In this document: positions 11,471 to 52,238 of the stretch, in pieces
Layout of the letters: every line of letters starts with the position of its first letter
Position numbering within the stretch: position 1 is the stretch's first letter
From: Podarcis cretensis
Lineage: Eukaryota
Direction: 5' to 3'
Length of the DNA stretch: 64,000 bases
NCBI GenBank assembly: GCA_951804945.1
Contig: OX638159.1
Coordinates: 3,162,001-3,226,000 of the forward strand
The notes under the pieces: generated by a model
What the model was told of the DNA's origin: nothing
The model's database searches: none
What the model saw: the letters and a program-made list of their open reading frames with translations, nothing else
Made by a program: the position numbers and the translations under genes

Positions 11471-12889
11471 CCTTACTGCTGCTACTACTAGTACCACCAC
11501 TAGTAGTAGTAGCAGCAGCAGCAGCATTAGAAGTAGTACTACCATTAGTACACAGTTTGAGAATCTGGGACTTTCTTTTGTCAAAACAACTGCAGAAACA
11601 GAAATCAGATTACCAATTGGGTTCTATTTGTCACACTCAATAATTGTGGAAAGCTTTCATCAAAACTGCCAATCCTACATATATTTCTGTGAGGATGTTT
11701 TGTTCTATTAGAAATGAAGAAACAATAAGGGGAGAGTGTTTGTTTTTTGTAGCCTTCAGTTTGTATTTCGTTTTGTGCAGTGTTCTTTATAGCATTTTTT
11801 AATATTTTTAGTAGCCCACAGCAAGGTCATCATGATGAAAGGTCATCTGAAGATGCAGATGCTCCTCTGCCACAAAAGGCACCAGGGTCCTGCAACTGCC
11901 AAGCATGCTCTGTGGTCACTCTAAGAGGAGGGAATGGCAAGCATGACAAGGAAAGGACGCAGGTGTCTGCTAAGGACATCTGAGCTCAGATGCCACCTGG
12001 GACCTCCAGCTTCCCTGCTCATTTCAGGACTTGTCCAGCCTAGTGCCTCCACTGAAGGTGGCAAAGTTGAAGGCAACCCATATGCCACAGAAGCAAAGGA
12101 GATGTGACGTACTGCCAAGGAAGGGCACTGCAGCTGCTGAAATGCAAGGCTGCCATTTCTGGAAATTTTGCCTGCACCACACTGCTTGGATTTGTAGGAC
12201 TATCAATGTGTGTGCACAAGTCATGGCGGCATTATGTTTTCTATATATTTTTTTAAACTTGCACATTCTGTGTAGAGAGCTGTAAGGCAATGTGGTGTTG
12301 AAGAGTTTTAATGTTTGATGTTTTATTGTGCTTTTATATTTGTTGGAAGCTGCCCAGGGCGGTTGGGGCAACCCAGTCAGATGTTCAGGGTACCAAAAAA
12401 AGAAAATTATTATTAAATTATTATTTGATGCAAATATGTAAAACAACTATGCATTTTGTAGAAAAAAAGAGTTTGGAAAGTAAGCCTCCAAATCATTTCA
12501 TGCATTTATTCATTCTCTGCCCTTTACCCTAAGGTCCTAAGGCAGGTTACAGCAGTATTAAAATGATTACACAATATTAAAATGATTTTAAATGGCTTCC
12601 AACTATAAAAACAAGGTGCTCCTAATAATATACTGTACACTTCAAGTGTCAAAAGTTGGGGCAAAGAGATGTGTCTTCAGCATTCCCTGAAAGCTGTATA
12701 ATGAAGGTGCCAGACACAGCGCTCTGGGGAGGGAGCACCAAAGCTTAGGGGAGTGCCCTGTCCCAGGTTGCCATCCCTGCCCCCCAAGCTTCTTAGGGCA
12801 GAGGGACTACCAAGAGCCTCCTCTGCTGATCTCAGTACCTACAAGGGTCTATAGAGAAGGACGTCTTTCAGATATGTCTACATTAAATG

Positions 12890-14032
12890 GCGCAATTCTC
12901 TCCCCAATGCTTTTTAACATCTTTATGCGCCCCCTTGCCCAGATTACCCGGAGCTTTGGGCTGGGCTGTCACCAATATGCTGATGACACTCAGCTCTATC
13001 TGCTGATGGATGGCCACACCGACTCGGCCCCAGACACACTGACCAGATGCTTGGAAGCTGTGGCTGGATGGTTTCATGGGAGCCGATTGAAACTGAATCC
13101 TTCGAAGACAGAGGTCCTATGGCTGGGTCGGGATGGCATGGGGATGAGGGACCAACTCCCTTCTCTTGTGGGGGCCCAATTAGTGCCATTGCCTTCCGTT
13201 AAGAGTTTGGGTGTAATTCTTGACGCCTCCCTTTCCATGGAGGCACAGGTTACAGCAACAGCCAAGGCAACATTTTTCCACCATCAAGCAGTTGGTCCCT
13301 TACCTTTCCCGCCCCGACCTGTCCACAGTGATCCATGTGATGGTCATCTCCAGGCTTGACTACTGTAATTCGCTCTACGCGGGGCTGCCCTTGAAGTTGT
13401 CCCAGAAACTCCAGCGGGTGCAGAATGCTGCAGCGAGGCTCCTCACGGGGTCTCTGCCATGGGAGCATATTCACCCAGTGCTTTTCAAACTGCACTGGCT
13501 CCCGGTAGAATACAGGGTCAAATTTAAGGTGCTGCTTTTGACCTTTAAAGCCCTTCACGGCCTAGGACCCTCGTACCTATGGGACCGCCTCCCCCAGTAT
13601 GCCCCACGGAGAGCCTCAAGGTCCATAAATAACAACACCCTAGTGGTCCCGGGCCCTAAGGAAGTTAGATTAGCTTCAAACAGAGCCAGGGCCTTTTCAA
13701 CTCTGGCTCCGGCTTGGTGGAACGCTCTGCCTCATGAGACCAGGGCCCTGCAGGATCTGATTTCTTTCCGCAGGGCCTGTAAGACAGAGTTGTTCCGCCT
13801 GCCCTTTGGCTTGGAGCCAATTTGATTCCCTCCCTCCCTCTCTTTCTTTTTTCTTTTACTTCTCCTTCAATGAGGCATTTTAATATTTTAATGTTTCAAT
13901 ATTTTAATGTTGTATTTTAATTTTGTTTTAAGTTGTAATCATTCAACTTGTTTTTATTATTGCTTGTTAGCCGCCCTGAGCCCGGCCTTCGCTGGGGAGG
14001 GTGGGGTATAAATAAAAATTATTATTGTTATT
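12890..14032 (+). mobile_element. L2-clade LINE, 5'-truncated, relatively young
   Basis: GAILSPMLFNI..CHQYADDTQLY, LKLNPSKTE, SRLDYCNSL, LQRVQNAAAR, LHWLPV; frameshift at about 13280; (TTA)n tail; 8-bp flanking repeat ATTAAATG (12882-12889 / 14033-14040). Confidence 0.9.
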
Positions 14033-25762: not shown

Positions 25763-26686
25763 TTTTTTTTAAATAATATTTATTAAATTTTAGTTTAACA
25801 ATAAAATACATAGATAATAACACAATCTTTTCCAAAATCCACATTTCATATTCATCTTTGGACTTCCTCACAACCCTTGTTCCTGCTTTCTAAACTCATA
25901 AATTTTACCAGCAAATTATTAACTTGGTTAATATAATATAATATAATTTTCCAATATTAATCTCAAATTTTGGGATTTAACATACTCTTATTAAAACTTA
26001 ATCATAAAATGTTACTTATCCAAAATTTATCTTTTCGTCTTCCAATTAAATTTAAATTTATATTCTTTATAACTAGTTTGTTGAAGCCATGTTTTTGCTA
26101 ATCTTACATCTTTCTTAACATTCATACAATTTACAATATTTTTGTAGATAGTCCTTGAATTTCTTCCAGTCTTCCTCCACCAGTTCTTCTCCCAGGTCTC
26201 GGATTCTGCCCGTCTATATAGTCTATCAGTTGCATCTGCCATTCTTCCAGTGTGGGTAATTCTTGAGTTTTCCAGCTTTTTGCGATGAGTATCCTTGCTG
26301 CTTTGTGGGACGCAGGTGGCGCTGTGGGTTAAAGCCTCAGCGCCTAGGACTTGCCGATCGAAAGGTCGGCGGTTCGAATCCCTGCGGCGGGGTGCGCTCC
26401 CGCTGCTCGGTCCCAGCGCCTGCCAACCTAGCAGTTCGAAAGCACCTCCGGGTGCAAGTAGATAAATAGGGACCGCTTACCAGCGGGAAGGTAAACGGCG
26501 TTTCCGTGTGCGGCTCTGGCTCGCCAGAGCAGCGATGTCATGCTGGCCACATGACCCGGAAGTGTCTCCAGACAGCGCTGGCCCCTGGCCTCTTAAGTGA
26601 GATGGGCGCACAACCCCAGAGTCTGTCAAGACTGGCCCGTACGGGCAGGGGTACCTTTACCTTTACCTTTATCCTTGCTGCTGTTG
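25763..26686 (-). mobile_element. 5'-truncated L1 (ORF2 C-terminus + 3'UTR + poly-A) with 17-bp TSD, interrupted by a SINE
   Basis: Minus strand encodes AARILIAKSWKTQELPTLEEWQMQLIDY; poly-T at 25763; TSD AGATGTTTCACTTTCTC at 25746-25762 and 26687-26703. Confidence 0.85.
26307..26670 (+). mobile_element. Sauria SINE (young, CpG-rich subfamily)
   Basis: A box GTGGCGCTGTGG, B box GGTTCGAATCC, (ACCTTT)3 tail, 13-bp TSD TATCCTTGCTGCT (26290-26302 / 26670-26682). Confidence 0.95.
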
Positions 26687-27295
26687 AGATGTTTCACTTT
26701 CTCAATGGGATTGCAAGGAAATTATGCAAAGCAAGTTTGACATGATAGACTGCTAAGCAAGGACTGGTTCACACTCATGTGATTTAACCATACATACATA
26801 CATGCATACAGTGGAGAAACAAAGTCACTCATATGTCCCAGCCACAGGAGCAGTGTACTATGGGTAGGATCCAATGAAGTCATTGTTAGCAGGATGACTT
26901 CTGCTTGTGCAATGAAGTGTCCCCTTGCTTTCCTTTCTTGCACCCACCCAAAACTGCTCCAAGGCATTGGTGGGGAACCCAGTGAAGATCTGGAGGTGTG
27001 TGTGGAGGGACTAGAGGGAGGGGAAGTTCAGTTGTGCAAGAGGAAGTTGTTCCACTCACACTATGACTTTGTTAGATACAACCCAGCGTGCTCTGAGCAA
27101 GGCTGCTGTGAAGCAATTGGAATTGAATGGTTGAACTGTGCACTTTGGTACCATTGTGACTCATGTCTCAGTCCTACATATGTTAAAGGAAGAAAGTTTC
27201 ATTAAAAAGAAACATTGATTTTTTTCCCAAATAACCTGTTCAGGAATGGGATGGAAAGCATTCTGTACTAGGCAGAGGGCACCCTCGGTAGTGGC

Positions 27296-27706
27296 TGTGG
27301 AGTTTGGAACAGACAGGGTTAAAACTCCGTGGTGCCCTGCATCTGGGAGGGGCCGGAAGCAGGGCTTTACGTCACAGGCTTTGTCTGTGAGAGTTACTTT
27401 CAGTTCTACCGAGAGACACTGAGAGACACAGCTAAACAGACAGGCTGTGTCTGTGTGCTTTTGGGAAGCACGGAGAGATGCCAGAATGGCGGAGGCTTCT
27501 GACGGGAAAAAGACTGATTTATGGCTTGTAAATAAACTCTTCTAAAGATAAGAACCGATCTGTCTTTTGGACTTGATTTATCCCTTTCTCACATGGACTC
27601 AGGACCGCTGCATTACTCTGCTATCCTACCAGGTCAGAGCTTCCTAGCAGAGAAGGCTCAGAGGAAGCGTGACTGGACGGTGAATTTATATTCAGTTACC
27701 AGCAAA
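27296..27706 (+). repeat. 5' LTR (411 bp)
   Basis: Direct repeat of 32048-32453; ETS-like CCGGAAG (27353-27359), CRE-like TTACGTCA (27367-27374), YY1-like AATGGCGG (27485-27492), AATAAA (27531-27536). Confidence 0.95.
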
Positions 27707-27729
27707 GGTTATGGACATTACGTGTTTCC
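27707..27729 (+). promoter_or_regulatory. Primer-binding site, half-tRNAiMet (Drosophila copia) type
   Basis: GGTTATGGacattaCGTGTTTCC immediately after the LTR, compared with GGTTATGGGCCCAGCACGCTTCC (complement of the internal 5' half of vertebrate initiator tRNA-Met, sequence recalled). Confidence 0.7.
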
Positions 27730-27899
27730 TGATAAGTGTGAGAAGGGAGGAGAACGCCAGCTTTGAGTTGCTGTGATCTCCTGCCAGGAAGGGCAGTGGG
27801 AGACGCTGGGGAGCGGAGCCAAGAGCCAAGAGAGACGGCTGCTTCGGACGTCCAGCTTGCTGGCAGAGTGAGTACGCTGAAAGCCCCGGGGGGAGGAGA

Positions 27900-30800
27900 A
27901 TGGCTGCTGCTCAGGCACAGCAGGGCCAAGACAGCTACCCCGGTGAAAGGCTCAGTGGGGCCAACTGGAAGGCCTGGAGTGAGCACATGTACCACTGGCT
28001 GAAGGGAAAGGAGCTGTGGGAATGCACGCAAGTCGATCCAGCCCAGGCCCAGGCCCAGCCCAAAGCAGACATGGCTGATGCTCTAGAGAGAGAGCAAAGG
28101 GTGCTGGCCATTTTAAAGGGCAGCGTTCATGCCTGGCTGTTGCCAGAGCTCCAAGGGAAGACGCCCTGGGTTGCGTGGCAGGCACTGAAGACAGCATGTC
28201 AGAAAGCAGTGGGAGCCAGGCCAGAGGGGGCTAGAAGATGCCCAAAGGGAGCAGCAAGCCCAGGAGGGGCTGAGCAACGCCCAGAAAGCCCAGAAGAAGC
28301 TGGGGCTGTTTTGGGAGGCTGTTTTTATGCTTCAACACATCTGAGTGATGGACTGTGTCCTGGAGAAAGGCTGGGAGCTGGAAAGAGGAAAGCAGTGGCA
28401 AGCTGTTCCTTAGGCGACGTGGCACCCAGGAGTGGGGGTGCAGGCCGTTCCGAGAGCTCTGAGAAAGCCAAAGTCTCCAAGAGTTGTTTGTGCTTTGAGG
28501 CGAAGTCCAACAGCAAAGGGCATTGTTCTGCTGAGGCTCTGGAATGCAAGGTCAGCCACCTGCAAGGAAGGCAGATAAGCAGTGATTCGCAGACAACAGA
28601 GCCTGGGAACAGCAGCAGCAGCCGTGCAGTAACCATGGCAACCAGGATGGACACTGGCATTGACACAGACCCCGGTGGGGGTGCGAGCGTTGCCATGGCA
28701 GCTTTGGAAGACAGCCAGAGAGACACTTTATCTCTAATTATCGATACGGGAGCCGCTCACTGTCTTGTGCCATCTGGTGGGCTCCTGAGGAACTGCAAGA
28801 CAGTTAAAACTGGACGTTATGTCAAAATGGCAGATGGATCTAAGAGACCACTGACTGAATCTGGGTCTTTATATTGTTCTTTCTTGGATTGTTGGGTGCA
28901 AGCTTATGTTGTCCCAGAGCTTGCGCACTCTCTTTTAAGTGTAACAGCCTTAAATGATGCTGGGTTCGATGTTCGTTTTTCTAACACTTGTTGTTCCTTC
29001 TACAGGGATGGAAAGAAGATCTACAGTGTTGAGAGAACAGACAGGCTCTTTCTGGTGCAGATGCCTATTGAAAATGGGGTTGGTGGAAAAATGGGACTAA
29101 TGGAAAATGGGACTGGTGGAAAAATGGGGCTGGTGGAAAATGGGGCTAGTGAAGAGTCCATTGAAGATGCCCATGTGCAGTGTGCAAATGTCCCACCACA
29201 CGATGGTTGTATTCACTTGTGGCACCGAAAATTCGGGCACGCTGGGTGGTCACTTGTGAGAAAAGCCGCAGAGAACACCATTGGGTGTAGGTTCAAGGCT
29301 TGTGGCAAATACCTAGATTGTCAAGCCTGTAAGCAGTCGAAGGTTACAACTTGCCCATATCCCAGATCAGAGAGGAGAACAAGCAAACCCTTTGAACTTG
29401 TCCATGCAGATTTGTCAGGTCCCATGCCGACACCTTCTTTAGCTGGGTCTAAGTGGGTTCTAGTTCTGATTGACGATTTTTCGAAATTTAGTTGGGTTTT
29501 TGCGCTTAAATGCAAGTCAGAAGCGGCTACATTGATCAGGGACTGGATCACAGCGATAGAGCTACAGTTCTCTACCAGGGTGATTTCCTTTCAATCTGAT
29601 CATGGGGGGGGGGGGAGTTTACAGGTTCTGCGCTGCAATCGTTTTTCAGGCAGAAGGGTATCAATCATCGATTGTCTGCCCCCTACAGTCCGCAACAGAA
29701 CGGGATTGCAGAGAGAAAGTTTTGCACATTACAGGAATCTGTGAATGCTATGCTGGCAGACTCGGGTTTGCCACAGTGCTTTTGGGCAGAGAGTTATCGG
29801 ACAGCATGTTTTGTACAGAATAGGGTGTACAATTCCAGTGTAGGCAACACACCGTATTACTTGTTGCATCAGAAGAAGCCGAAGGTGGGGTTTCTCCATG
29901 TTTTTGGTTCTGAGGCTTGGGTCCTCATTCCAAAAGCCATGCGCAGAAAGGGTGAGCCAAGGTCTAGGAAGATGATCTTTGTGGGCTATGAGCCGGGTTC
30001 AAAGGCGTGGCGTTTCGCATACCCTACTGGCAACCAGTCTAAGCTGCTTATTAGCGGCAGTGCTGAGTTTTGCGAGCAGAGTGGGTGGAAGTGTCTTCAC
30101 GGGAACCCAGATGTTCTGTCAGACTCAGATGAGGAAGAGGAGGAAGGCGAAGCTGAACCTGTTGCTGATGTGCGCGGTCCACAGCAACAGGGTCCAGTGC
30201 CAGTTTCTCCAAAAGGGAGTCCCAGGACCCCTCCACAGGTCACTGTCAAGTCTGAGCTAAGGAGTGCACCATCCTCACCAGCAGAACCAGCTGTACGTCC
30301 GAAATGGCGCAGCAGGTCAGAGGGGGATGTGTCAGACACAGAGGATAGTAGGGTTGATCCAGGTGAATCAGGCGCAGTTCCAGAATTCATGCTGAGGAGG
30401 TCAGCAAGATCAACGAAGGGAAAGCCACCTGAAAGGTATGAAGCCACTAGTGTCTGGGTTGGTGTGGCTAGATGTGAGCCTGAATCCTTTGAGGATGTTC
30501 AGGAGTTGCCTCAGGAAGAAGCTAGCAAATGGCGTGAGGCGATGCAGAAGGAGATGAACTCAATGGAGTCTCTAGGTGTGTTCTCTCTCACGAAGTTGCC
30601 GATGGGCGAAAAAGCTGTTAGCTGCAGATGGGTTTACCGTTTGAAACCCACAGAAGCAGGAGAACCACAGTATAAAGCGAGATTAGTGGCCCGAGGATTC
30701 ACACAGAGGAAGGGTGTCCATTTCACAGAGGTATATTCGCCAACCTCGAGAGCGGAGACTCTGAGAAAGCTTTTGGCGATAGCAGCACAGAGAGGTTGGA

Positions 30801-32174
30801 AGGTGAACCATTTTGATGTAGATGTCGCCTACCTGAACTCAGATCTCAAGGAGGAGTTGTACATGCTTCCTCCTCCAGGGTTTGAAGTCAGTGAGCCAGG
30901 CGTTGTGTGGCAGTTGCACAAATCCATCTATGGATTACGTCAATCTGCCAGGAATTGGAATATGTGCCTACATGAAGCCTTAGAAGAGCTAGGTTTTAAG
31001 AGATCTCTTGCAGACAGTTGTCTTTACATTAAAGAGTCAGGCTTAAGTGATCCAGGTGTTTGTTGACGACCTTTTGATCATGGCACAGACAGGTAAACAG
31101 GTGGAAAAGTTTGCTAGAGAGCTTGGAAAGCGGTTCAAGCTGAAGCAGCTTGGAGATGTCAAATCCTATTTGGGCGTGCAGATCACAAAAGCAAGTGATG
31201 GAAGCTTCTTGCTTTGCCAGAAAGGTAAGATTGAACAGTTGCTTGAGAAGTTCAGGATGTCTGAGTGTGCAGGTGCCAGATCACCCATGGAGGCTGGTTT
31301 TGTAAAGGAGTGTCAGCAAGTAGAACGTGTGGTGTTCGAAAACACTGAGCTCTTTCAGTCAGCTCTGGGTAGTCTGTTGTATCTGTCACAGTGGAGCAGA
31401 CCAGATATAGCGTTTGCTGTCAATCTGCTCAGTAGAGAGGCCTCAAGTCCTAGTGTGCAGGCCTGGAATGGTATAAAGCGGGTGCTGCGTTACCTGCAAG
31501 ATACCAAAGACTTTTGTCTTAAGTTGTCAGCTCAAGGAGATGTCAAGCTGACTGCTTGGGTGGACTCGGATTGGGCTAACCTTGAGGATCGCAAATCAGT
31601 GTCAGGTCTAGTGGTGAAGTTTGGGGACTCAGTAATTGGGTGGAGGTCCTGGAAGCAAAGTCTCATAGCGCTTTCGTCTACTGAAGCTGAGTTCAGTGCG
31701 CTATCAGATGCTTGCAGAGAGTTGGAGTTCTATGTGTGTTTGGTCGAGGAAATCTGTGGAGAAAATTGTCTGCCCGTTGTGGTGCATGAAGACAATCAAC
31801 CGTGCCTTAAATTGGCTGAGACAGGGCAATTCAAGGCGAGGACCAAACATTTGGACATACGTTTTCAAAATGTGTGTCAGAGCGCTCGTGAGGGGCTAGT
31901 TGCTCTGAAATACTGTCCCTCAACCAAGAACCTCGCTGATGGTTTCACAAAACCATTAACCTTCCAGAAGCACAAGGAGTTCTGTGAGGGTTTGTGTATG
32001 GGGAAAGCATTGTTGGCTATCGTCCCCAGATGCAGGACAAGAGGGGGTGTGGAGTTTGGAACAGACAGGGTTAAAACTCCGTGGTGCCCTGCATCTGGGA
32101 GGGGCCGGAAGCAGGGCTTTACGTCACAGGCTTTGTCTGTGAGAGTTACTTTCAGTTCTACCGAGAGACGCTGA
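27900..32174 (+). pseudogene. Copia Gag-Pol polyprotein in three frames (two frameshifts)
   Basis: Gag N-terminus (LSGANWKAWSEHM..KELW), protease IIDTGAAH, integrase HHCC (LWHRKFGH..CQAC) and D-D-E (HADLSGP, QSDHGG, NGIAER), RT (SCRWVYRLK..YKARLVARGFTQ, LHKSIYGLRQS, FVDD), RNase H (VDSDWA, EAEF, EDNQ, ADGFTKPL); shifts at G12 run 29604-29615 and about 31040-31048. Confidence 0.95.
32033..32047 (+). promoter_or_regulatory. Polypurine tract
   Basis: CAGGACAAGAGGGGG directly before the TG of the 3' LTR. Confidence 0.85.
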
Positions 32175-32453
32175 GAGACACAGCTAAACAGACAGGCTGT
32201 GTCTGTGTGCTTTTGGGAAGCACGGAGAGATGCCAGAATGGCGGAGGCTTCTGACGGGAAAAAGACTGATTTATGGCTTGTAAATAAACTCTTCTAAAGA
32301 TAAGAACCGATCTGTCTTTTGGACTTGATTTATCCCTTTCTCACATGGACTCAGGACCGCTGCATTACTCTGCTACCAGGTCAGAGCTTCCTAGCAGAGA
32401 AGGCTCAGAGGAAGCGTGACTGGACGGTGAATTTATATTCAATTACCAGCAAA
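32048..32453 (+). repeat. 3' LTR (406 bp)
   Basis: Differs from the 5' LTR by 2 substitutions and a 5-bp indel (visual alignment). Confidence 0.95.
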
Positions 32454-32652
32454 GTGGCACCCTCCCTGTGGAACACCTTCCCTTCAGATGTCAAGGAGAT
32501 AAAGAACTACATAACTTTTAGAAGACATCTGAAGGCAACCCTTTATTGGGAAATTTTTAATGTCTGATGCTTTACTATATTTTTATATATATTGTAAGCT
32601 GCCCACAGTGGCTGGGGAAACCCAGTCAGATGGGTGGGGTATAAATAATAAA

Positions 32653-33360: not shown

Positions 33361-36300
33361 TGTTGTTGTTGTTTAGTCGTTTAGTCGTGTCCGACTCTTC
33401 GTGACCCCATGGACCAGAGAACGCCAGGCACTCCTGTCCTCCACTGCCCCCCGCAGCTTGGTCAGACTCATGCTGGTAACCTCGAAAACACTATCCAACC
33501 ATCTCGTCCTCTGTCGCCCCCTTCTCCTTGTGCCCTCCATCTTTCCCAACATCAGGGTCTTCTCCAGGGAGTCTTCTCTTCTCATGAGGTGGCCAAAGTA
33601 CTGGAGCCTCAGCTTCACAATCTGTCCTTCCAGTGAGCACTCAGGGCTGATTTCCTTCAGAATGGAGAGGTTTGATCTTCTTGCAGTCCATGGGACTCTC
33701 AAGAGTCTCCTCCAGCACCATAATTCAAAAGCATCAATTCTTCGGCGATCAGCCTTCTTTATGGTCCAGCTCTCACTTCCATACATCACTACTGGGAAAA
33801 CCATAGCTTTAACTATACGGACCTTTGTTGGCAAGGTGATGTCTCTACTTCTCAAGATGCTGTCTAGGCCTGTCATTGCCCTTCTCCCAAGAAGCAGGCG
33901 TCTTTTAATTTCGTGGCTGCTGTCACCATCTGCAGTGATCATGGAGCCCAAGAAAGTAAAATCTCTCACTGCCTCCATTTCTTCTCCTTCTATTTGCCAG
34001 GAGGTGATGGGACCAGTAGCCATGATCTTCGTTTTTTTGATGTTGAGCTTCAGACCATATTTTGCACTCTCCTCTTTCACCCTCAATAAAAGGTTCTTTA
34101 ATTCCTCCTCACTTTCTGCCATCAAGGTTGTGTCATCTGCATATCTGAGGTTGTTGATATTTCTTCCGGCAATCTTAATTCCGGCTAGGGATTCATCCAG
34201 CCCAGCCTTTCGCATGATGAATTCTGCATATAAGTTAAATAAGCAGGGAGACAAAATGCAGCCTTGTTGTACTCCTTTCCCAATTTTGAACCAGTCAGTT
34301 GTTCCATATCCAGTTCTAACTGTAGCTTCTTGTCCCACATAGAGATTTCTCAGGAGACAGATGAGGTGATCAGGCACTCCCATTTCTTTAAGAACTTGCC
34401 ATAGTTTGCCATGGTTGACACAGTCAAAGGCTTTTGCATAGTCAATGAAGCAGAAGTAAATGTCTTTCTGGAACTCTCTAGCTTTCTCCATAATCCAGCG
34501 CATGTTTGCAATTTGGTCTCTGGTTCCTCTGCCTCTTCTAAATCCAGCTTGCACTTCTGGGAGTTCTCGGTCCACATACTGCTTGAGCCTTCCTTGTAGA
34601 ATTTTAAGCATAACCTTGCTAGCGTGAGAAATTAGTGCAATTGTGCGATAGTTGGAGCATTCTTTGGCACTGCCCTTCTTTGGGATTGGGATGTAGACTG
34701 ATCTTCTCCAATCTTCTGGCCACTGCTGAGTTTTCCAAACTTGCTGCATATTGAGTGTAGCACCATAACAGCATCATCTTTTAAAATTTTAAATAGTTCA
34801 GCTGGAATACCATCACTTCCACTGGCCTTTTTATTTGCAGTGCTTTCTAAGGCCCATTTGACTTCACTCTCCAGGATGTCTGGCTCAAGGTCAGCAACCA
34901 CACTACCTGTGGTGTATGAGCCATCCATATATTTCTGGTATAATTCCTCTGTGTATTCTTGCCACCTCTTCTTGATGTCTTCTGCTTCTGTTAGGTCCTT
35001 TCCACTTTTGTCCTTTATTATGGAAATCTTTGTACGAAATGTTCCTTTCATATCTCCAATTTTCTTGAACAGATCTCTGGTTCTTCCCATTCTATTGCTT
35101 TCCTCTATTTCTTTGCATTGCTTGTTTAAGAAGGTCTTCTTGTCTCTCCTTGCTATTCTTTGGAAATCTGCATTCAATTTCCTGTATGTTTCACGATCTC
35201 CCTTGCATTTTGCTTGCCTTCTCTCCCCCGCTATTTGTAAGGCCTCATTGGACAGCCACTTTGCTTTCTTGCATTTCCTTTTCATTGGGATGGTTTTCGT
35301 TGCTGCCTCCTGTATAATGTTACGAGCCTCCATCCATAGTTCTTCAGGCACTCTGTCCACCAAATCTAAATCCTTAAACCTGTTCCTCACTTCCACTGTG
35401 TATTCATAAGGGATTTGACTTAGATTGTATCTTACCAGCCCAGTGGTTTTTCCTACTTTCTTCAGTTTAAGCTTGAATTTTGCTATAAGAAGCTGATGAT
35501 CTGAGCCACAGTCAGCTCCAGGTCTTGTTTTTGCTGACTGTATAGAGCTTCTCCATCTTTGGCTGCAGAGAATATAATCAATCTGATTTCGATGCTGCCC
35601 ATCTGGTGATGTCCATGTGTAGAGTTGTCTCTTGTGTTGTTGGAAAAGAGTGTTTGTGATGACCAGTTGTTTGTGATGGGCAGTTGTTCTCTTGGCAGAA
35701 CTCTATTAGCCTTTGCCCTGCTTCGTTTTGATCTCCAAGGCCAAACTTGCCAGTTGTTCCTTTTATCTCTTGACTCCCTACTTTAGCATTCCAATCCCCT
35801 ATAATGAGAAGAACATCCTTCTTTGGTGTCACTTCTATAAGGTGTTGTAAGTCTTCATAGAATTGGTCAATTTCAGTTTCTTCAGCACCAGTAGTTGGTG
35901 CATAAACTTGGATTACTGTGATGTTAAAAGGTCTGCCTTGGATTCGTATCGAGATCATTCTATCATTTTTGAGATTGCATCCCAGTACAGCTTTTGCCAC
36001 TCTTTTGTTGACTATGAGGGCCACTCCATTTCTTTTACAGGATTCTTGCCCACAGTAGTAGATATGATGGTCATCCGAACTGAATTCGTCCATTCCCATC
36101 AATATTTATTCTTGCCATTTCATTTTTGACCACATCCAACTTACCCATTCCTGTCCATTTTAGTTCACTGATGCCCAGGATGTCAATATTTATTCTTGCC
36201 ATCTCATTTTTGACCACCTCCAACTTACCCATGTTCATGGTTCTTACATTCCAGGTTCCTATGCAATATTTTTCTTTACAGCATTGGACTTTCCTTTCGC

Positions 36301-36654
36301 TTCCAGGCATATCCGCAACTGAGCGTCCTTTCGGCTTTGGCCCAGCCGCTTCATCAGCTCTGGATCTACTTGTACTTGCCCTCCGCTCTTCCCCAGTAGC
36401 ATGTTGGACGCCTTCCGACCTGAGGGGCTCATCTTCCAGCGTCATAACTTTTATATGCCTGTTGTCTTTGTCCATGGAGTTTTCTTGGCAGGGATACTGG
36501 AGTGGCTTGCCGGTTCCTCCTCCAGGTGGATCACGTTTGGTCAAAACTCTCCACTATGACCTGTTCATCTTGGGTGCCCTGCTCGGCATAGTTCATAGCT
36601 TCTCTGAGTTCTTCAAGCCCCTTCGCCACGGCAAGGCAGTGATCCATGAAGGGG
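33361..36654 (-). mobile_element. Full-length BovB (RTE clade) LINE, ORF disrupted
   Basis: APE (IGTWNVRTM, LGISELKW, QVYAPT, IIGDWNAK) and RT (NYRTIALISHASK, QGCILSP, LRYADD); (CAA)n tail; 12-bp TSD GTGGATTTATAT (33349-33360 / 36655-36666); lesions at about 36100-36230, 35660-35690 and 34745. Confidence 0.95.
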
Positions 36655-50308: not shown

Positions 50309-51868
50309 ATTGGACGAGGCCCTTTTAGTGAACCAAGCCTGGCATTTGCTTGGTGGCAACTTGAGGAAGGGTCTCCTTCTCAGTGGCCTCCATGCTATGG
50401 AATGATCTGTGGTAATTCACTGCAACTGAGTTCCATCACTTGGTCAAAACATACTTATTTATGGGTGAATTCCCAAACGCTGAGTTTTAGTACCTGCTCT
50501 ATTGGAAACTTGTATTTGTGCTTTCTGTATCTAAGCATTTCATTGTGTATTGATCTGAGTATGTAAATCCGCCTTAGTGGGAAGTCCATCTAGAAATGTT
50601 TTACTAATTAAAATGTATAACAGCCCATCTAAAAAGGAAGGTGGTATTTACACACAACAAGGGCACTTTTATATAGAAACATGCAAGTTTTTATAGTCCT
50701 TTCTAGGGGGAAAAAACCAAGAATCCATGGTTTTGCTGCACAAATCATTGTGTTCAACCTGTTCTCCTTGTGCTGTTCTTTTTCTTATAGTCCTATAGTG
50801 TTTTATTTAAAAACAGCCAGTTGATGAGAAAGGGGTCGTTAGCTCGGAAAACAGTACATAACTATATAAATGATGCAGCCTGTGTGGGTAGATTTTCAAG
50901 GCTTTGTGTCTTTTACCTTACCTTTATCCAGCTGAAAAAGAAGATCTGCCCGCAGCACAGAGGCGTTCTCTGCACTAAGTGAGGGAGGCGATTATTCTCT
51001 TCCCCACCACCTCCAACATCATTCAAAGGGCCCTATCAATGCAGGCTTGTCATAACAATTTGTCACTTATTTTTTGTTTCCATATATCAGCGAAGGCTCC
51101 AGGCCACTGCTATAGGCTATGTGCTACAGCCTGGAAAATAAAAACCCTGTCGCATGTAATAAATTGAGAGTACCATCACAAAAGAGCCAGCTAATGGCCA
51201 GGACTGTTTCTATAAGCTCTGTCAGACAACCTCAGAAATGGGTAGCCTGGCTTCAAAAACTGGGGCAGGAGAGGGAGATAGAAAAATTAAGAGCTAAAAA
51301 ATATAGGCATGCAGCAACTGGTGCTTAATAAAACCACTGTGCCCACCACCAAAATGTTTACTGGAAGCAAGAGCTATGGATTGCAATCATTTGCCAAGAA
51401 GTCTCAAAATGCCAATGATGATATACTAACTGGACATCTTCCAACTCAATTGTCTTCATTCACCTCCAGATACAATAAACTGCTCCTGGCAGAAAGGAAG
51501 AATAAGCAAATGTGAATACTGAGAGCCCAGTAGAAGCAATGCTCTCAGGATAGATAAACATGTTCATACCCATCATGAGGTTTTCTGAAGATATTGTCTC
51601 ATGGCGGCTTCTTTCATTAAATTGTTTATTATCATGGTCAGGGCGACTTCAGGGAGAGGGAAGTCTGCCCGTCATGATGAACCATGTAGATGGATGTATG
51701 TTGGGTTTTCTGAATCCACCTTATGCTCTCAAAGATGAGAAGAGCTTAGGTGCTCATCCACTGTCATATTACTCACCTCTTTTCCTTGCTCCAGGTTTGT
51801 TTATCAAGGCCTCTTCCCCATCTCTTTCTCAATCCCACCTACTATAGACCGCAAGTAAGTGCCATCTT

Positions 51869-52238
51869 GGACGCAGGTGGCGCTGTGGGTAAAAGCCTCA
51901 GCGCCTAGGGCTTGCCGATCGAAAGGTCGGCGGTTCGAATCCCTGCGGCGGGGTGCGCTCCCGTCGTTCGGTCCCAGCGCCTGCCAACCTAGCAGTTCGA
52001 AAGCACCCTCGTGTGCAAGTAGATAAATAGGGACCGCTTACCAGCGGGAAGGTAAACGGCGTTTCCGTGTGCGGCTCTGGCTCTGGCTCTGGCCAGAGCA
52101 GCGATGTCACGCTGGCCACGTGACCCGGAAGTGTCTTCGGACAGCGCTGGCCCCTGGCCTCTTAAGTGAGATGGGCGCACCAACCCCAGAGTCTGGCAAG
52201 ACTGGCCCGTACGGGCAGGGGTACCTTTACCTTTACCT
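51869..52238 (+). mobile_element. Sauria SINE (young subfamily, nearly identical to the 26307 copy)
   Basis: A/B boxes, ACCTTT tail, 13-bp TSD TAAGTGCCATCTT (51856-51868 / 52239-52251). Confidence 0.95.

Follow-up and report, generated by a model that had tools for sequence, protein, structure and literature searches.

Which primer starts reverse transcription of the LTR retrotransposon that lies near the middle of this window (the whole 64,000-nucleotide stretch of Podarcis cretensis DNA analysed here), and how is that primer held on its template? An earlier note on positions 27707–27729 had proposed a 5' half of initiator tRNA (tRNA-iMet) lying on a split, partly wobble-paired primer-binding site (PBS). 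That stretch adjoins the 5' LTR of a Ty1/copia element, the features of which are given below.

27291–27295, forward strand: left target-site duplication, 5 bp, with letters identical to 32454–32458
27296–27706, forward strand: 5' LTR, 411 nt, with TG...AAA ends (not CA), delimited by comparison with the 3' LTR and by the target duplications of several copies
27531–27536, forward strand: AATAAA, the sole one in the LTR, from which the sites downstream of it are taken to lie in U5
27777–32047, forward strand: gag-pol region, with three open stretches (27777–29744, 29600–31066 and 31047–32174), from open frames and domain matches
32039–32047, forward strand: polypurine tract, immediately 5' of the 3' LTR here and in other copies
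32048–32453, forward strand: 3' LTR, 406 nt, from alignment to the 5' LTR
32357–32374 and 32393–32425, forward strand: the U5 site and sense look-alike described below, repeated in the 3' LTR, from sequence comparison
32454–32458, forward strand: right target-site duplication, with letters identical to 27291–27295

The two LTRs are 98.3% identical (2 substitutions and one 5-nt indel) and the 5-bp target duplication lies directly outside both LTRs of this 5.2-kb coding element; with the LTR borders and the flanking duplication so fixed, 27707 is the first base past the LTR. Two LTRs, a PBS, a polypurine tract and a target duplication are present as in other Ty1/copia elements, integrase precedes reverse transcriptase, and the RVT_2 (E 5e-50) and SH3_retrovirus domains score above their cut-offs, whilst rve (E 4e-5) falls under its cut-off as the domain is split and gag_pre-integrs is likewise under its own. 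Since the frame shifts within integrase and again within reverse transcriptase, the window copy is broken. Ty1/copia LTRs usually run TG...CA, although this trait is not strictly defining; here the LTR runs TG...AAA and the duplication follows at once. Family letters A to J are labels of this analysis, A being the clade of the window element. In clade A the LTRs finish with AA(A) and the 5-bp duplication abuts them, both in the window (27704–27706 and 32451–32453) and at L015, L017, L093, L098, L101, L196 and L197; no matching duplication was seen at the pairs L004/L011 and L002/L012, nor at L102. In family D (L189, L193) a spacer of 4–5 nt, missing from the 3' LTR, separates CA from the PBS.

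A DNA search of the same genome returned 136 candidates, 40 of which were scored and all 40 matched, and among named proteins the closest relative, at 86% identity, belongs to Podarcis lilfordi. Contigs from 4 of 23 runs carry pieces of the family, none of which spans the stretch, so that they give no start, end or level. The rest of the window holds interspersed repeats and LINE-like frames (63–2733, 12691–13825, 26299–26617, 33373–36553 and 51860–52186), ordinary by eye.

The split primer-binding site and its probable primer

27707–27714, forward strand: PBS core, complement of tRNA-iMet nt 39–32 (anticodon loop), placed by register; perfect in 22 of 24 copies
27715–27720, forward strand: variable spacer, 6 nt long, facing tRNA nt 31–26; 9 variants in 24 copies
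27721–27729, forward strand: distal PBS block, pairing with tRNA nt 25–17, its last 2–3 bases also lying in the predicted fork stem described below; placed by register and fully paired in 24 of 24 copies

The tRNA-iMet reference was the host genome's own L068, one of eight genes of this type (L068 plus seven further ARAGORN calls) among the loci scanned, and the complement that the earlier note had used agrees with it, as do its letters and coordinates for 27707–27729 with the sequence. Against nt 39–32 the core makes 8 of 8 Watson–Crick pairs, the middle described as mostly mismatched makes one Watson–Crick and one G:U pair out of 6, and the last nine bases pair with nt 25–17 through 6 Watson–Crick and 3 G:U pairs, just as had been read. 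By chance, the 9-nt block would be expected in its fixed register at 1.6e-4 and the core at its fixed place at 2.8e-5, and a genome pattern made from the site gave 82 matches versus 1 with the reversed control. The LTR–leader junction was located in 24 of the 25 loci examined (the exception, L030, was later read as L102), 8 of these 24 copies having been chosen by a pattern that requires both blocks. Across the 24 copies the split pattern is kept and the middle takes 9 forms, which rules out the decay of a single copy as its origin, whilst three divergent copies from the DNA search (L102, L195 and L194) have a 7-nt middle and distal blocks that pair at 9, 9 and 8 of 9 positions (by eye). The split PBS is thus supported as a trait that the family keeps.

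That no TGG follows the LTR, as had also been noted, is not literally so, since one is present at 27712–27714 inside the core; it is nevertheless improbable as a canonical site. The bases right after it are the most variable ones, and among 38 distinct host tRNA sequences, an incomplete set covering 10 amino-acid types, no 3' end gave a run longer than 5 nt. The self-priming trait of Tf1/Sushi and TAR, a PBS complement in the 5' LTR, was looked for as well, and the LTR holds no match to the complement of the 8-nt core within 2 mismatches. A PBS at the LTR edge complementary to the tRNA-iMet anticodon stem-loop, one mark of half-tRNA-primed copia elements (copia, Ty5, Osser type), is present here. 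When the first 45 leader bases were paired with whole tRNAs, tRNA-iMet was not on top, another Met-labelled call and those for Asn, Leu, Lys and Val being as low or lower, so that the primer is argued from its register at the LTR edge together with conservation. We consider it very likely that the primer is the 5' half of tRNA-iMet (nt 1–39) with its 3' end at nt 39; register, conservation among copies and the copied tRNA halves of sister families all speak for this part of the earlier proposal.

Copied tRNA halves in sister families

Other LTR families, in which an unbroken complement of the tRNA half comes after the LTR, account for most of the 82 pattern matches. Outside family B, 17 such loci were scored (L081 and L082 being probably one event, and L065 perfect over 23 nt only), by a pattern that is blind to copies shorter than 23 nt: the copies begin at nt 39/40 at the LTR end, 11 stop at nt 7–12 and 6 exactly at nt 1. 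In L188, L189 and L191 the tRNA copy runs into a U5 stretch, duplicated or inverted, beyond which stands the PBS proper to the family, with a tRNA match of only about 8 nt. The copy departs from that 8-nt-core PBS further along; families with a short core thus do use this tRNA half as primer. Judged by their sequences, the copied halves are footprints of this primer.

Five of these loci (L188, L189, L190, L191 and L199) have near-identical LTRs with a primer copy of 27–30 nt at the 5' LTR, three of them running into the duplicated or inverted U5. At five others (L037, L077, L079, L032 and L065) a single LTR is followed by the tRNA-half copy and then by unrelated DNA, without a 5-bp duplication; these look like captured plus-strand intermediates.

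Human tRNA-iMet carries m1G9, a modification described as blocking reverse transcriptase and hindering annealing (PMC7293042). In the full-length copies an A faces nt 9 in 2 of 5 events, and both this A and the stops near nt 10 would fit m1G9, the modification being assumed for the lizard. The PBS of family B (e.g., L185:1081–1112) is a contiguous 30–32 nt complement ending at tRNA nt 10–8. Opposite nt 9 it has A in 27 of 31 copies and C in 4 of 31, a count that leaves out L080, also with C, and a few further copies, and C needs four separate changes on the tree; the scatter of A and C looks as if the primer were sometimes written back. The 5' end of family B type recurs near many chromosome ends (L172 and about 15 similar matches), probably by subtelomeric duplication. 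No primer copy was found on a clade A LTR, either among the 82 pattern matches or in a second search (0 of 4), and in this clade primer sequence would not normally be written back into the PBS.

A third complementary site in U5 and the probable docking of the primer

27605–27622, forward strand: U5 site, complement of tRNA-iMet nt 18–1, with 15 Watson–Crick pairs, 2 G:U pairs and 1 mismatch (z -5.7)
27646–27678, forward strand: sense look-alike of tRNA-iMet nt 1–31, 27 of 31 identical (z -8.0)
27583–27604, forward strand: U5 arm of a predicted fork, 27583–27594 pairing with 27736–27747 and 27599–27604 with 27727–27732 (p 0.005 versus shuffles; 0 of 60 sliding controls as strong)
27727–27747, forward strand: leader arm of the predicted fork, from its pairing with the U5 arm

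The split site noted earlier is a real pattern, but as an account of primer binding it is incomplete, since it passes over the 18-nt U5 site, the sense copy and the predicted fork. Both the U5 site and the look-alike are the best of 4232 windows, and none of 29 control tRNA 5' ends pairs as strongly as the U5 site. A U5 site at z <= -3 is found in 15 of 19 half-tRNA entries (it is weak in A5, B, F and H) and in none of 3 entries primed from a tRNA 3' end, where the entries are related within clades and the three controls make up one clade. Clades A and C have the sense look-alike in 12 of 12 entries, the 10 remaining entries in none, and the U5 site occurs in families D, E, G and I, all of them without the sense copy. 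In clades A and C the U5 site never has C opposite G9 (19 of 19 entries), which is what a G9 unable to pair would lead one to expect.

The predicted fork pairs the bases just 5' of the U5 site with those just 3' of the distal block. It reaches p <= 0.04 in 7 of 7 clade A entries, in 6 of 7 clade C entries and in E; in families B, D, F and I it is weak or absent and not significant. U5–leader stems are not specific in themselves, because the control L178 comes close (p 0.07; 0 of 60 sliding controls). Clades A and C have the same fork layout built from unrelated stem sequences: their LTRs give no significant blastn match (best E 0.02) and their integrases are 53–64% identical, forming two supported clades whose joint node is not resolved, and with the stems wholly changed from one clade to the other the tRNA-like stretches are still identical at 21–27 of 31 and 14–18 of 20 positions. 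Within clade A, 96% of the 15 stem pairs counted are kept, and covariation is no better than in shuffles (1 of 15 pairs changed on both sides; 144 of 500 shuffles).

Predicted net energies were -23.6 kcal/mol for the three sites together and, for single sites, -13.3 with the U5 site and -8.4 with the core, whereas core and distal block in combination came to +4.6; these values omit junction and loop penalties, and protein chaperones would alter the kinetics. The split PBS, put forward earlier as what holds the primer, would thus cover only part of the contact, since core and distal block alone are predicted not to open the tRNA half. The fork is predicted to persist with all three sites held open. 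Ordinary co-folding, a method that cannot draw the crossing structure, gave a gain of only 2–9 kcal/mol.

We think it probable that the tRNA half docks at three sites across an RNA fork to form a three-way junction. Reverse transcription would start from the 5' half of tRNA-iMet (nt 1–39), of which nt 39–32 would lie on the core with the cut 3' end abutting the LTR, nt 31–26 would be looped out, nt 25–19 would lie on the distal block and nt 18–1 would cross to the U5 site; the U5–leader stem would bring the ends of the U5 site and the distal block together and so give the three-way junction. The stem would explain why both of these sites have terminal bases able to pair with tRNA nt 17–18, the last distal bases sitting in the stem and the primer crossing there. 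That the U5 site is predicted to give most of the binding energy would explain why an 8-nt core is enough.

Our tentative proposal for the sense copy, which we rate somewhat below an even chance, is that it acts after synthesis has started, its minus-strand copy folding back on the primer and peeling it off the template; the alternative is a role at the RNA level as a decoy or hairpin. A prediction in which RNA parameters served as proxy has the look-alike's minus-strand copy pairing with 28–34 primer nt in clades A and C and with 3–14 in others, and the look-alike ends at nt 31, where the core begins. Against fold-back stand the read-through copies of clade C (L051, L075 and L084), which has the sense copy, and the hairpins that the look-alike is predicted to form in the RNA; the direction of changes in the sense copy (12 versus 6 events) is not decisive, as hairpin compensation would give it too. 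Going further, the element RNA could be a jig that makes and recycles its own primer: the three sites would invade intact tRNA-iMet and free its 3' half, which is predicted to form one long hairpin, a host nuclease such as RNase P would cut at nt 39/40, and fold-back would usually limit plus-strand copying to the 8 core bases. We regard this extension as speculative and unlikely; if true, a programmed DNA fold-back would be doing the job of m1A58 in retroviruses.

Among the alternatives to three-site docking, the one that survives best is half-tRNA priming through core and distal block only, with the U5 site and the sense copy as relics of an old primer capture and fold-back kept as hairpin arms. 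Such captures do occur (inverted U5 follows in L051 and L075, and in L073 the sequence returns to U5), the sense copy forms part of U5 hairpins in several predicted folds, and an A inserted in the clade A copy suits the hairpin partner and not the tRNA (by eye). We nevertheless hold relics to be an unlikely explanation, since the fork stems have changed fully between A and C with the tRNA-like stretches kept, the U5 site stands in D, E, G and I where there is no sense copy to go with it, and core plus distal block would bind unfavourably.

Less probable still is a closed switch, in which the sense copy within the element would be the main pairing partner of both distal block and U5 site, the tRNA sitting on the 8-nt core only or displacing the copy as in the masked primer activation signal of HIV-1. 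On the distal block the sense copy pairs roughly as strongly as the tRNA (-8.4 versus -7.8), but on the U5 site it is far weaker (-15.7 versus -30.6), and its corresponding position (G23) has changed in the subfamilies A2, A3, A3b and A7, in which the tRNA still pairs at 9 of 9 positions; such a switch is compatible with three-site docking as the state before docking. Canonical priming by some tRNA 3' end at TGG 27712, self-priming or a decayed site is largely refuted and very improbable, for although the TGG lies 5 nt past the LTR end, inside the 0–5 bp window given for plant elements (PMC6317226), and the host tRNA set compared was incomplete, the six bases past it take 9 forms, the longest 3'-end run is 5 nt, the LTR has no complement of the core at up to 2 mismatches and the same core recurs across subfamilies. 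A tRNA 3' end with CCA in the LTR, an idea noted by eye, was also rejected: the 5-nt indel creates this resemblance in the 3' LTR only, and the letters concerned form the last part of the U5 site.

Spread of the layout and relation to known systems

At least 123 metagenome loci carry a 14-nt PBS, and the 103 with enough upstream DNA fell into 67 clusters. At z <= -3 and among the matches listed, a U5 site was found in 2 of 67 clusters and the sense copy in 0 of 67, where the hosts' own tRNAs may differ; the three-site layout, by these comparisons, looks lineage-specific. A motif of 6–7 nt for tRNA nt 1–7 is enriched upstream, among the matches listed, in 22 of 67 clusters versus 8 of 67 on the other strand (p 0.006) and 8 of 58 downstream (p 0.02), and a second pattern for it gave p 0.0003 and 0.13, likewise among the matches listed, a post hoc hint of a shorter contact with tRNA nt 1–7 elsewhere. 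At L175:1132–3927, L184 and other clade C loci, the one frame scanned comprises Gag and integrase without a reverse transcriptase match, and in most loci of this clade the match breaks off where reverse transcriptase begins. Clade C, which shares the priming layout of clade A, may borrow its enzyme.

The PBS of Drosophila copia is a contiguous 14 nt, as seen also in the metagenome loci, whereas the core here is 8 nt. Priming by a tRNA half was shown for copia in 1986 (Kikuchi) and for Ty5 in 1999 (Ke), as cited in PMC10275265, PMC10886601 and PMC5371799, so that the link between tRNA halves and transposition, as drawn earlier, was overstated and is not new. Besides copia and Ty5, such priming is described for fungal Copia and a number of plant lineages (PMC10886601, PMC6317226, PMC10275265), with tRNA-Met named for copia (PMC7773854) and RNase P for the cutting of the Ty5 primer (PMC5371799). 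A distal block, a U5 site for nt 1–18 and a sense tRNA copy, all present here, are absent from the passages of these citing accounts that describe copia and Ty5.

Extra primer contacts are known for Ty1 and Ty3 (PMC5371799) and for HIV-1 (PMC11181671). As described for Ty1 and Ty3, a short core is here aided by template sites that would bind other arms of tRNA-iMet, but those elements prime from the intact 3' end via the T and D arms and not from a 5' half, and the second site of Ty3 is in U3, about 4800 nt off, compared with about 85–100 nt upstream for the extra site here (PMC5371799). The account of HIV-1 likewise has an upstream template site pairing with another part of the primer, a three-way junction in the PBS segment and a tRNA look-alike beside the PBS; its element, however, mimics the anticodon loop in shape and binds lysyl-tRNA synthetase, whereas here 31 nt of primer sequence are copied (PMC11181671). 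Here, unlike in HIV-1, the junction would have the primer as one of its strands. Helenus TRIMs also have a tRNA-like sequence inside the LTR, and the fungal ones use anticodon-loop priming, but their tRNA-like sequence is reported to keep the Pol III boxes A and B and to have no complementarity to the PBS (PMC10886601). The tRNA copy here is a 5' part only, matching the primer itself; with a look-alike of nt 1–31 in a 5.2-kb coding element, the element is unlike Helenus and TRIMp3, which are short and non-coding.

Mtanga is a Copia clade reported for squamates (PMC11889832), and neither PBS nor tRNA occurs in the main text of that survey of metazoan Copia; by its host group the window element may belong to this clade. 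In the literature on copia priming we found no U5 site for the tRNA 5' end, no fork and no primer copy in an LTR, and an earlier mention for Ty5 or copia, or in the supplements of PMC11889832 and PMC6317226, is possible. The primer call, very likely right, is of a known kind; the new part is the predicted three-site fork layout together with the tRNA look-alike, for which the sequence gives good support.

The findings would extend half-tRNA priming to several vertebrate families, of which we found no such description in the literature on copia priming. The copia-type literature that we found says little on the cutting of a half-tRNA primer, on its hold by a very short PBS and on its removal, and this locus offers a concrete model, open to tests with a 200-nt RNA and a 39-nt oligonucleotide. 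Furthermore, primer footprints whose ends and misread base fit m1G9 would make a tRNA modification readable from integrated DNA.
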